Position numbers: made by a program. Shown here piece by piece: positions 22,601 through 25,600 of a DNA stretch of 64,000 nt; position 1 is the first letter of the stretch; each line of letters opens with the position of its first letter. The stretch is from Longimicrobiales bacterium (GTDB lineage: Bacteria; Gemmatimonadota; Gemmatimonadetes; Longimicrobiales; Gaopeijiaceae): the NCBI GenBank assembly GCA_965226375.1, contig CBDDCX010000007.1, positions 288,001-352,000 on the forward strand, written 5' to 3'.

Positions 22601-25600
22601 ACGTCAACGGCACCGTGTCGGGCAATAACATCATTCACCGAGGCAGCGTGAATATCGGGATGGCAGTGGATCTCGATCCCGGACTCATCGTCCCGGTCAT
22701 CCACGACACCGACGATCTGAGCCTGGTCGGCATCGGCAAGAAGATCATCGATCTGGCTGAACGCGCACGCTCTCGGCAGCTCAACCCGTCGGAGATTCAG
22801 GGTGCGACCTTCTCCATTACCAACCCGGGTGTCCTCGGCACGCTGGTCGGGTTGCCCGTCATCCCGAAAGGGACGTCGGCGATCCTTGGCACGGGGGCGA
22901 TCGCAAAGCGCACCGTGGTGGTGGAGGATCCCGCCACGGGCACCGACGCCATCGCCATCAGGAAGCGATCGCTGTTTTCCCTCGGGTACGATCACCGACT
23001 CGTGGATGGTGCCGACGCCGCGAGGTTCCTCTCGGGACTCAAAGCGCTCCTGGAGGACTTCCCCGAGGACGCGTAGTGTCACCGCGGCGAGGCCAAGGTG
23101 AGGTGCCCTCGACCGGACGGGACGCTTGGGTAAGAGGACGCTGACGGACGGTGTCGGATCCTTCATACCCGAGTGACTCGCTGGAGTTGGAGGTGCGGGA
23201 TCTTGGCCTCGTGCCGTACGGTGAGGCGCTGGAGCTCCAAGCGGATCTGGTAGCGCGTCGACGCGCCGGTGAGGTGCCGGACCAACTCCTCCTCCTGGAG
23301 CATCCCCACGTCATAACGCTGGGTACGGGATCGCGTCCCGAGCACGTTTTGGCCGACGCGGCTCGGCGGGATGCACTCGGGGTCGAGCTCTTCGAGGTAG
23401 GTAGGGGTGGGGACGTGACCTATCATGGTCCCGGCCAACTCGTCGGCTATCCCGTGCTGGATCTCAAGCCCGACCGTCGAGATCTGCACCGCTATCTGCG
23501 AGACCTGGAGGCCATGCTCATTGCGGCCATGGGGGAGTTCGGTGTCCGAGGGGAGACCGTACCGGGGCTCACGGGCGTTTGGGTGGAGAGCCGCAAAGTA
23601 GCGGCCATCGGTGTCCGTGTGTCGTCCGGCTGGATCACCTCCCATGGTTTCGCGCTCAACGTGGACAGCGACCTCACCTACTATGAGACGATCGTGCCGT
23701 GTGGCATCGCCGACCGTACGGTCACATCGCTTTCCAAGGAGGCCGGCCGCTCGATCCGGGTCGCCGAGGTCGCTCCTGTCGTTCGCGAGGCTTTCGCTGA
23801 TACGTTTCAGCGGCGAATTCGTGTTGGCGGGCCAACAAATGAGGCCTCTGAAGAGGGTGTCTGAGGTGACCTGGGGACTCCGTGGGTTTTTGAAATCCCG
23901 GCAGAAGATCTTGCCCGTCAATCCTTGGACAAGCCTCGAAGATCAATCTGTTTACGCTCGATTATGACCGGAGCAACGGCACTCCGGACTGTTTGTTAAC
24001 ATCGAATAGCATAACGAGTTACGGGATAATGCATGTTTTGTGCACGAGGTCGATCGAGAAGCTTGACGTTGGGCTGGAGCCTGCCCATACTGTAAGTGCG
24101 TTTCCGATGTGGTACGCTGAATCGATGGCGTTGGTCATCCCTTCATGTGGATCGCGAGACGCGTTTCATCGGACGGGACGCCGTAGCGGTGGAAGCGAAC
24201 CGAGGGTTGGACCTCGGTGAGCCGGCAGAGGAGCCGTTGGTCTCTGCTGAACCCTCCGGAGCTCGGAGGACCTGAAGTTGCTGACCGCGCGACGACGGGA
24301 TAAGGGAAGCTGAGTCAGCTGCCCGACTGAAGGTGAGCCGCAAGGCGATCTGGAAGGAGGGCGGGTTTCCAAACAAGACGAGGTTTCTACCAACGAAATA
24401 GGGGCCCTCGGGGCGGCTTGCCGCACCGAGGGCTTCTTTTTTTTGTGGAGGCATTGGCCTGCGACGTGCTCTGCGGCCCCGAGGAACTCAACCGGCGGGG
24501 AGCTATCCTTCGGGCGGGGCGTGCTCGAAGTAATCGAGATAACGGCCGTACTTGTCACGCTGCTCATCCAGCCAGAGCTCGTAACGGCTTTCAACCAGCC
24601 CCCCGGAAGCCGTTCGCTCGGTGGCCGCTCGCGTGGCGAGATGGTCGGCGTACTCGTTCTGGACATGGCCTTCGTGACCGCGAACCCAGCTCCACCGCAC
24701 GTCGTGTTTGGCGGCGATGCGATCGAGCTCCTGCCAGAGTTCCAGGTTCCCGATCTCTCCCCCCTTCCGCTTCCATCCACGCGACTTCCACCCCTTCAGC
24801 CACTCGGTCATTCCCTTGACGAGATACTGGCTGTCCGACACGAACCGGGCTCTACACGGACGCTTTCGCAGCAAGGTCAGCGCCTCGATCGCGCTCCGAA
24901 GTGCCATACGGTTGTTGGTCGTGTCCGGCTCTGAGACCCAATAGTCCCGGCGTACCCACTCATCGGCCGTCCAGTGCTCGACCAGACCGCCGGCGCCTCC
25001 GGGGTTGGCTCTGTCTTGGAACTGGTTGCCGAGGCAGGACTCATCGGCGTAGATGAAAATCTCGGGCGCTTCCGTCATTTCGTTCCGTCTTCTTCCCGAT
25101 CAGATGGCTCGGCGGGTAGCGAGCAAGGTAGGGCGGCGAGTGGGGGGGCGGAACCGGGTGACATCCAAGCTTGACTCGCTTTGCTGCGGTTCTAAATTCC
25201 GCCGGCTGTCGGATCTTTCTGACGGCACCACACATGACTCGGAAGTTCCCGATTTGGCTGGCACTGACCCACGCGAACCTGCGTACCTTCTCCTTGAAGA
25301 CGGTCGGCGTTTCGACGGCTTTCGATTTGGCGCCGCAGGGCCTTCACTCGGTGAGGTGGTATTCAATACGTCCATGACCGGATACCAGGAGATCCTCACC
25401 GATCCGTCGTATTCCGGTCAGCATGTCGTCATGACGTATCCGCTGATCGGCAACTACGGAGTGAACGACGAGGATCGGGAGTCGGAGGGCCCTCAGGTTA
25501 CGGGCTTCGTGGTGCGTGAGCTTCCTCCGCAGCATTCCTCCTGGCGAGCGACCGAGTCGCTGGAGGAATACCTTACGGCCCATGACGTCGTGGGAATCGC

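Follow-up and report, generated by a model that had tools for sequence, protein, structure and literature searches.

Analysis of a 64,000-nt stretch of DNA from a Longimicrobiales bacterium (hereafter the window, to which all coordinates refer) identified from its sequence an uncatalogued gene for a conserved, structured non-coding RNA of ~345 nt, which stands alone with its own promoter and terminator. The RNA probably represents a new class; it is widespread in one phylum and often present in several copies per genome. Its fold is very probably a series of hairpins (P2-P9) that three long-range pairings, designated A, B and C, bind together.

Gene, transcription signals and predicted fold

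The gene lies between lipB and rnhA, and the features of the locus are as follows.

23151..23864, + strand, lipB, upstream neighbour, outside the RNA
24012..24021, no strand assigned, possible IHF-like site (pattern YAA-N4-TTR)
24063..24091, + strand, sigma70-type promoter (TTGACG, 17 nt, CATACT), predicted start ~24096
24096..24444, + strand, ncRNA, ~345 nt; conserved core P3-P9 of ~230 nt, variable 5' arm
24098..24162, + strand, P1, long irregular 5' arm in its family-f1 form
24164..24194, + strand, P2 hairpin, GACG tetraloop at 24177-24180
24195..24222, + strand, P3 hairpin, loop 24207-24211 as 5' strand of pairing B
24223..24249, + strand, P4 hairpin, loop 24235-24240 as 5' strand of pseudoknot A
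24253..24269, + strand, P5 hairpin, palindrome GAGCTC at 24259-24264
24271..24299, + strand, P6 hairpin with internal loop; pair 24281:24289 covaries (E 0.07)
24305..24388, + strand, P7 with branch P8; covariation support at 24305:24387 and 24306:24386
24368..24372, + strand, 3' strand of pairing B, bulge TCCAA, partner 24207-24211
24390..24395, + strand, 3' strand of pseudoknot A, CCAACG
24400..24444, + strand, P9 terminal hairpin (24400-24437) and U-tract (T8 at 24437-24444), forming the intrinsic terminator; loop 24417-24421 (CTTGC) as 3' strand of pairing C
24503..25078, - strand, rnhA (RNase HI), convergent downstream neighbour, outside the RNA

The promoter scan returned two sites against 0.4 in shuffles, the second at 25171, and a promoter scoring at least 8/12 precedes the RNA in 71 of 155 homologues; shuffled controls gave 7. 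The automatic terminator scan did not list the hairpin 24400-24437. The YAA-N4-TTR pattern, which we take to be a putative IHF-type site, occurred in 25 of 71 homologue upstream regions, compared with 4.8 after shuffling. A first-pass annotation of this DNA had described a stand-alone, uncatalogued structured RNA with a sigma70-type promoter and a U-tract terminator; TTGACG-17-CATACT at 24063-24091 and T8 at 24437-24444 agree with that description, as does the absence of an Rfam match. The best Rfam 15 hit in the window region had an E of 0.35, below every family's threshold. None of 20 homologue loci scored at gathering, and another 20 loci searched at E <= 1 gave one sub-threshold match, which lay outside the RNA.

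The RNA folded with z = -4.0 (opposite strand, z = -2.4) and none of 100 shuffles was equally stable, reproducing the stability reported earlier as z = -4.4. Covariation was examined in 45 diverse homologues, aligned with MAFFT from sequence only. Double-sided change was observed in 48 of 54 named pairs, confirming the compensatory change previously claimed for 29 of 52, and 86.7% of cells were paired, compared with 34-43% in slid controls, a comparison biased in favour of the named pairs because they were picked from the same alignment. Under a tree null, the top 10 covarying pairs (E <= 0.07) were all predicted helix or pseudoknot pairs. P4 is the most conserved element (97.5% paired) and holds three of the four top covarying pairs, while P1 is shorter outside family f1 and missing from the shortest homologues. 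P8 of the window's RNA bears a ~30-nt insertion, whose tip at 24340-24344 (GCAAG) forms the 5' strand of pairing C.

Pseudoknot A joins the P4 loop CGTTGG (24235-24240) to CCAACG (24390-24395), the strand preceding the terminator. Both strands had been named in the first-pass annotation and are present; its figures of 98.7% paired and two covarying positions overstate the covariation, with one significant pair, 24236:24394 (G-C/A-U; E 0.07 under the tree null, ~2 events), the others being nearly invariant. Pairing B connects the P3 loop with a bulge in P7/P8. It is 92.9% paired with double-sided change in all five pairs, and the run formed with its own partner was 5.8, against 4.6 shuffled; single pairs were not significant under the tree null (E 1.1 and 2.9). 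Pairing C, between the P8 tip and the P9 loop, was found in 90 of 158 homologues against 38 +/- 4 expected, with at least four Watson-Crick pairs in 86 of 154 against 36.5 shuffled; none of the other 14 loop-loop combinations compared was in excess. Among tree-neighbour pairs, the own partner was preferred in 41 and the swapped partner in 18, with 17 ties. The window's RNA keeps pairing C, with altered letters, at the tip of its insertion, and ~40% of homologues lack it, including much of the multicopy subfamily. With three long-range pairings, nearly all conserved single strands are occupied within the fold. Pairing C would build the terminator into the fold and bury the 3' end, which could favour stability and a high steady-state level. 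A pairing of the 5' GYGG with the bases preceding pseudoknot A was also considered, and was dropped because it overlaps the covarying P7.

Distribution, copy number and expression

Of 151 genomes sampled from the order, 78 were matched by covariance models after removal of two weak matches, so that the search reported earlier to have failed does work, and the RNA was found in ~15% of genomes of the phylum. It is also present in one clade of the gammaproteobacterial Steroidobacteraceae, where it arrived at one site without a partner gene. The collected family comprises 162 non-redundant sequences. In family f3, 28 of 42 positive genomes carry 2-5 copies (maximum 5), whereas the source genome has a single copy; copies are both tandem and dispersed, and some are 94-99% alike. 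The first-pass annotation, which found no copy between lipB and rnhA in most other genomes inspected, understated this site: it is the commonest (17 of the 92 matches examined, in two families), and the other 75 have other neighbours. These neighbours are many, unrelated and found in both orientations, and none is conserved.

Among the matches listed in loose pattern scans, strong scores were obtained for 60 of 119 genome loci and for 66 of 120 metagenome loci. The remaining loci did not score strongly, and every other phylum named in one of the scans was among them; the same held for all five viral matches. The strong matches named in that scan are all MAGs. Searches of phage, plasmid and viral collections did not recover the RNA. 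Nine weak model matches, mostly in coding DNA, were judged on reading to be due to chance. The RNA was also not found in several of the complete genomes examined, and is therefore dispensable.

In three RNA runs, each from a different study (of sponge, marine sediment and a coded organism), contigs accumulate over 24115-24402, with a summed depth of 20 to 3e5 over the RNA and 0-21 on the flanks; a fourth run, of unrecorded type, has contigs over all 30 bins. These are four of the 24 runs listed. Because the depths come from contigs, which take in related strains, were retrieved with this same DNA and cannot rank genes, great abundance of the RNA is no more than likely. The first-pass annotation had called it very abundant in sponge metatranscriptomes; the high depth on the RNA is borne out, as contig depth, but the RNA is not specific to sponge and occurs in several habitats. 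Contigs do not cover the terminal hairpin or the initial 19 nt; processing was not argued from this pattern, as library chemistry can give the same.

In one multicopy f3 subfamily, a box TGTGRAW-N6-YGTTACAW is located ~126-131 nt before the -35 element, and all nine exact matches in five genomes precede a copy of the RNA. The window's own gene lacks the box (best weight-matrix score -8.7). A degenerate version at 23938-23955 was rejected, having failed the weight matrix and matched only a pattern written after it had been seen. The first-pass annotation had overlooked this dedicated box and the gammaproteobacterial clade, together with pairings B and C, the self-complementary loops and the multicopy state of f3.

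Self-complementary loops and proposed function

Four-nucleotide palindromes occur in the P5 loop of 80 of 158 homologues, compared with 30 +/- 4 after shuffling, and in 16 of 43 sequences gathered after the idea arose, compared with 7.4 +/- 2.2. Eight different sequences are represented, and the tree implies no fewer than 18 switches among them. Of the 80 palindromes, 49 lie off-centre in the loop and 31 are centred, as a perfect inverted repeat gives without kissing. In the remaining 78 homologues the predicted loop contains no perfect 4-nt palindrome, and some loops are GNRA. The commonest palindromes, GAUC, AGCU and GGCC, are those given for bridge B3 of OLE in the available part of PMC12286853. 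The held-out P3 loop is also in palindrome excess, as a single sequence, UCGA, fixed by pairing B. The P5 palindrome is a candidate intermolecular kissing loop.

The P2 loop is GACG in 91 of 162 homologues, GAUA in 13 and GNRA-type in 28. GACG changes to GAUA by a double change, with GACA found just twice and GAUG absent. The closing pair 24176:24181 covaries (E 0.07), and the adjacent-column signal (~4 events) was not significant under the tree null (E 4.5). Loop-loop contacts by GACG tetraloops are described for MuLV RNA in the accessible text of PMC5874298, and the P2 loop is a candidate 2-bp symmetric kissing loop. The P5 palindrome, assisted by the P2 loop, could join molecules into homodimers or larger assemblies, as the L9.3 loop does in OLE. 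Like those of ROOL and GOLLD, some of the pairings A, B and C might also be intermolecular. On these patterns we lean somewhat towards self-association of the RNA in vivo.

As a tentative working model, we propose that an abundant, 3'-locked, self-associating RNA may act in trans, serving to scaffold or sequester protein. Action in trans is suggested by the many unrelated neighbours in both orientations and by the arrival in Steroidobacteraceae without a partner gene. In the weakest step of the model, the effect of the assembly would depend on dose, a host protein being bound by a multivalent scaffold or sink. A search for the protein partner found no conserved neighbour, no Ro60 in the source genome, and no CsrA in the source genome or four f3 genomes; CsrA was found in the one gammaproteobacterial carrier tested. 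Also against the model, the window's own gene is single copy without the upstream box, and the RNA is dispensable. One subfamily may tune the RNA level through its dedicated upstream activator site and extra gene copies, a logic of the CsrB/Rsm type with a different partner. More doubtful is a self-assembling class in which protomers linked through P5 and P2, with one or more pairings between molecules, would close into an RNA-only ring or cage that is chromosomal, served by a dedicated transcription factor and portable between phyla. The protomer core would be ~230 nt, smaller than ROOL or GOLLD, and portable without a partner gene.

The RNA could instead be a compact, abundant, trans-acting monomer like raiA, its pairings intramolecular and its palindromes a by-product of hairpin evolution. 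Half of the homologues lack the P5 palindrome, and raiA, a comparable RNA of similar size class with at least two pseudoknots and variable peripheral arms (PMC12968392, in the part available), is itself a monomer; the off-centre palindromes that switch among eight sequences, and the lack of a raiA-type closing 5'/3' helix or a raiA model match, make this unlikely. A ribozyme or ligand-binding RNA, with P4 and pseudoknot A as its active or binding site, would account for a small, near-invariant core in a variable frame and for the triple-knotted fold. It is improbable, as no pathway link emerged among 161 neighbouring proteins and the contigs, weak for this purpose, contain no joint or common internal end within the RNA. 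Spread as a cassette by a non-autonomous selfish element, MITE-like or retroposed, is suggested by up to five copies, some 94-99% alike, the many insertion sites and the jump between phyla. We consider it very unlikely: paralogues share DNA that starts at the -35 box or as much as ~170 nt upstream of it, sequence that retroposition would leave behind; five alignments inspected by eye contain no target-site duplication or terminal inverted repeat; the 161 neighbours, some without a Pfam match, include no transposase, reverse transcriptase or HNH/RuvC protein; the lipB-rnhA site is old and vertically kept in two families; and the viral, phage and plasmid collections searched yielded no copy.

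Ms1 replaces 6S in mycobacteria, and an RNA-polymerase-binding substitute of this kind would fit the high abundance and the lack of a 6S hit above cut-off in 91 genomes of the order or in the source genome. However, the 6S model gave a signal in only 4-5 of 14 controls, the source genome encodes a distinct 6S-like RNA at C5:264980-265141 (nhmmer E 2e-10 against the order's one weak 6S match; RF00013 only 15.7 bits), and the fold departs from the long hairpin with central bubble of 6S/Ms1, so that this role is highly improbable. It is also highly improbable that the RNA regulates lipB or rnhA in cis, works as a base-pairing sRNA or is a small mRNA. lipB-rnhA is indeed the commonest site (17 of 92), but the RNA lies downstream of lipB and convergent with rnhA under its own promoter and terminator, and 75 of 92 matches have other neighbours; the conserved single strands are taken up by internal pairings; and 61 of 162 homologues have no closed ATG frame, the median longest being 15 codons. 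A divergent housekeeping RNA was set aside, RNase P, tmRNA and small SRP being encoded elsewhere in the source genome.

Relation to known RNAs and significance

Like OLE, the new RNA is a large stand-alone bacterial ncRNA with a loop that switches among GGCC, GAUC and AGCU, here in about half of the homologues. OLE has an adjacent oapA protein gene, whereas the new RNA has no conserved adjacent protein gene, gives no OLE model match, measures 225-345 nt against ~580 nt and belongs to another phylum. The OLE palindrome loop is an intermolecular bridge of a homodimer in the available part of PMC12286853, whereas here a dimer is proposed. With raiA it shares a ~200-250-nt core, two pseudoknots, optional peripheral arms and presumed action in trans; raiA, in the portion of PMC12968392 at hand, is very abundant, single-copy, monomeric and mainly found in Bacillota and Actinomycetota. 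It differs in lacking a P1 that closes the 5' and 3' ends (none among the top covarying pairs) and in using three separate partner segments, where PK1 and PK2 of raiA, as available to us, both arise from one linker, PK-L, between P5 and P6. The smtA motif ('Soda Lake RNA') is likewise an orphan structured RNA, large (>350 nt) and narrowly distributed, but is confined to Thioalkalivibrio beside smtA/purH; it is set apart by its description, not its structure, in the available part of PMC11109978.

The candidate symmetric kissing loops recall ROOL and GOLLD, whose covarying loop-loop pairings, first read as tertiary, are intermolecular in the partial sources available; the new RNA is much smaller than their 550-830 nt, gives no model match and is absent from the phage and viral collections searched. 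ROOL and GOLLD are linked to phage or prophage. Redundant copies, an upstream box with an IHF site, and abundance are features of CsrB/RsmY/RsmZ, and here too there are redundant copies and a dedicated box (f3 subfamily only), an IHF-like site and likely abundance. The GacA box is 18 bp and the present one 20 bp, the fold is pseudoknotted without repeated GGA hairpin loops (the window's RNA has 13 GGA in 350 nt, not as conserved loops), and all five Gemmatimonadota carriers tested lack CsrA. No adjacent IscB, TnpB, IS110 or RT gene and no element ends were found that would indicate an omega RNA, bridge RNA or group II intron. A group II intron remnant, considered for a GUGCG start that occurs in few f1 members and is not conserved, was rejected for want of a domain V or an Rfam match. 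Our literature search found no description of the RNA, though the supplementary motif or cluster tables of two surveys could hold the family; the main texts of PMC11109978 and bioRxiv 10.64898/2026.10.21.760802 do not mention Gemmatimonadota.

Bacteria have few large RNAs with intricate folds, and the small number of known orphans, OLE, ROOL, GOLLD and raiA, are open questions. This family offers a deep, diverse alignment that includes naturally minimal and extended forms. It also makes specific predictions, namely three long-range pairings, dimer loops and a terminator that has a structural role as well, so that it can be studied directly in vitro without culture of the host. The dedicated upstream box provides a route to a regulator and an inducing condition. 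If its abundance holds, a sizeable fraction of the Gemmatimonadota reads in metatranscriptomes from sponge and sediment would come from this unannotated RNA.

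RNA gene and fold

The RNA gene lies on the + strand between lipB and rnhA and has, as the first-pass annotation had claimed, its own promoter and an intrinsic terminator, here a hairpin with T8.

Features of the RNA gene and its neighbours (window positions)
23151–23864, + strand: lipB, 5' neighbour of the RNA gene
24063–24091, + strand: sigma70-type promoter of the RNA gene, between lipB and rnhA
24207–24211 with 24368–24372, + strand: pairing B, P3 loop with the P7–P8 bulge, from the alignment of 45 cores
24235–24240 with 24390–24395, + strand: pseudoknot A, P4 loop with the pre-terminator strand, near-complete pairing, nearly invariant
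24259–24264, + strand: P5 palindrome GAGCTC, read from the sequence
24340–24344 with 24417–24421, + strand: pairing C, P8 tip GCAAG with terminator-hairpin loop CTTGC, from loop comparison
24400–24444, + strand: hairpin and T8, 3' end of the RNA
24503–25078, − strand: rnhA, 3' neighbour of the RNA gene

The ~345 nt after the promoter gave a folding z of −4.0 on the + strand, against −2.4 on the − strand, bearing out the unusually stable fold proposed earlier. The proposed lack of an Rfam family also held, with no near-threshold match at the window RNA or at 40 homologue loci. The gene is single-copy in its genome (G000), where RNase P RNA, tmRNA and small SRP RNA were all found elsewhere and were thus rejected as identities. 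The RNA does not belong to OLE, raiA, ROOL, GOLLD, 6S or CsrB, although its dimer-type loop is like that of OLE and its size and knotting are like those of raiA (PMC12968392). No description of it was found in the literature searched, including the main texts of recent surveys (supplements apart). Apart from the RNA gene, a 6S-like RNA is located at G000:C5:264980-265141 (locus L246, ~1481–1646), with an Rfam score of only 15.7 bits; the lead to it came from G002, an unpublished genome. Since the 6S model gave no above-cut-off match in 91 genomes of the order, there may be a divergent, uncatalogued 6S subfamily. Elsewhere in the window, a second sigma70-like promoter (25171–25198, +) precedes a carA-like gene. 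A dihydrolipoamide acyltransferase-like gene 5' of lipB (21689–23076, +) is split into two overlapping frames, 21689–22651 and 22393–23076, a pattern that a one-base indel near 22390 would give and that may be an assembly error.

When 45 diverse cores were aligned on sequence alone, both sides changed in 48 of 54 named pairs, themselves picked from the alignment on which they were scored, and 86.7% of cells were paired, compared with 74% in shuffled and 34–43% in slid controls. In an unbiased scan with its own tree-based null, 158 sequences yielded ten pairs with E ≤ 0.07, all in P2, P3, P4, P6, P7 or pseudoknot A. The pseudoknot claimed earlier, joining a hairpin loop to the pre-terminator segment, is present and almost fully paired; its covariation amounts to one significant pair, resting on about two events. 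Pairing B, overlooked in the first-pass annotation, is 92.9% paired in the 45 cores with both-side change at 5/5 pairs. Its run measures 5.8 with the own partner and 4.6 with shuffled ones, and its best single pairs reached E of 1.1 and 2.9 (5 and 11 events) under the tree-based null.

Pairing C has at least four Watson–Crick pairs in 90 of 158 sequences; shuffling the partners gives 38 ± 4. Compensated variants are numerous, and in one of them the two loops are swapped. It was the sole excess among 15 loop–loop combinations (loops alone, 63/154 against 22, four rows from unpublished genomes being left out), and between tree neighbours the own partner was favoured in 41 comparisons and the swapped one in 18, 17 being tied. 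In the window, ~30 nt are inserted in P8, yet its tip still matches the terminator loop; pairing C is missing from ~40% of homologues. A fold tied by all three pairings is very probable. The 5' arm before P3 is variable (60–79 nt in 59 of 71, longer in family f1, none in the shortest forms), and no conserved reading frame was found among the homologues. For some members of one genus (L096, L100, L072, L217), the RNA begins by repeating the 3' strand of pseudoknot A, and this copy could compete for the P4 loop.

Distribution, genomic context and copies

BLAST of 151 genomes of the order, with profile iteration, gave 20 full homologues, from which the covariance model R1 was built. R1 matched 80 of the 151 (33/50 in f1, 4/50 in f2, 42/50 in f3, plus G000), or 78 after setting aside two weak or partial f1 matches. 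The total includes three unpublished genomes, G081, G147 and G030; G081 is a row in both model alignments and G030 in the second, and the loop statistics are unchanged in outcome without the three. The broader model R2 matched 23 of 151 genomes of the phylum, 21 strongly (f5 10/31, f4 2/71), and none in seven smaller families of that sample. Both searches score few candidates per genome, and a miss is no proof of absence; in-depth rescoring of five genomes brought up no strong match, and five rnhA loci from match-negative genomes lacked the RNA.

A pattern scan of GTDB genomes found at least 119 loci, at least 60 scoring strongly; the strong ones among the matches listed comprise 55 titled Gemmatimonadota, four Steroidobacteraceae and one unclassified. 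Of 120 metagenome loci among the pattern matches listed, 66 score strongly, and viral contigs, phages and plasmids gave no scoring match. Strong matches occur in 9 of 41 genomes of the Steroidobacteraceae genus. The four gammaproteobacterial copies each lie immediately 5' of thrC, and 120 other genomes of the carrier's family and 150 others of the class gave no full match. This pattern of loci fits a single horizontal arrival, with no partner gene along.

lipB and/or rnhA adjoin the RNA in 17 of 92 neighbour-scanned matches (both in nine), across f1 and f3, and their interval looks like the ancestral site. Chorismate mutase lies beside nine matches of one genus, seven of these also having rpmA or rplU; around the remaining matches the genes are unrelated and lie either way round. 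The 161 neighbouring proteins, some without Pfam match, included no transposase, reverse transcriptase or HNH/RuvC family. Among the 42 f3 genomes with a match, 28 have two to five copies, of which a few are weak. What paralogues of one genome have in common is the promoter, the RNA and the terminator, and in many cases also ~170 nt 5' of them; no target-site duplication was seen in alignments inspected by eye. The unit is therefore a regulated gene, duplicated as DNA. Copies often stand on both sides of one ordinary gene, 1.4–1.9 kb apart (L075 (G036:C2), L076, L077, L078, L081, L083), and two of the three at L075 are 99.7% alike over 586 nt. In the complete genome G001, a ~170-bp direct repeat (L279, ~2120–2550) occupies the place where sister species have the RNA beside rnhA.

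A promoter scoring at least 8/12 lies upstream of 71 of 155 non-redundant homologues, against seven in shuffles. One f3 subfamily carries the box TGTGRAW-N6-YGTTACAW ~126–131 nt 5' of the −35 (25 sites); all nine exact matches in five genomes precede an RNA copy (L413–L421), and the box is absent before the window's gene. Farther 5' of the box at these loci are GTGGAYAA-like words, which we take to resemble DnaA boxes.

Abundance, self-complementary loops and possible role

Four of 24 listed runs were compared as contigs. Three RNA runs from three studies had contigs over 24115–24402 with summed depths from tens to 3e5, against 0–21 on the flanks; a fourth, of unrecorded type, covered the whole 4 kb. 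All three sets start at 24115, ~19 nt inside the predicted RNA start. In one study, a 90-nt piece without any difference had a depth of 25,000, against 3 for a 188-nt carA piece. The RNA, earlier described as very abundant, is thus likely so, and only likely, because the contigs combine strains, carry no strand information and were retrieved by means of the RNA gene itself.

A 4-nt palindrome occurs in the P5 loop of 80 of the 158 sequences, where shuffling gives 30 ± 4, and in 16 of 43 fetched after the idea arose, against 7.4 ± 2.2. Eight different palindromes occur; the tree needs no fewer than 18 switches between them, and 49 of the 80 sit off-centre. GAUC, AGCU and GGCC are the commonest. 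The OLE loop for which these same three are reported forms an intermolecular bridge by cryo-EM (PMC12286853). In 162 sequences the P2 loop reads GACG 91 times and GAUA 13 times and is GNRA-type 28 times, and the P2 signal is not significant under a tree-based null; GACG tetraloops make loop–loop contacts in MuLV RNA dimers (PMC5874298). The switching in P5 points to homo-oligomers, but half of the family lacks a P5 palindrome, and 31 of those present sit at the loop centre, where a simple inverted repeat would put them. On balance, these loops tilt slightly towards self-association.

The conserved single strands are taken up by the three internal pairings, and the neighbours differ, a combination that suits neither a riboswitch nor an sRNA acting by base pairing. 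CsrA, absent from G000 and four f3 genomes, and Ro60, absent from G000, were ruled out as protein partners, and no gene was found travelling with the RNA in the neighbourhoods examined. With its terminator loop held in the fold, the RNA would have a protected 3' end, which could explain a high level. The extra copies and dedicated box suggest that the amount of RNA matters, as in RNAs that hold or sequester a protein. Tentatively, the RNA might serve as a protein scaffold or sink, a role given slightly less than even weight.
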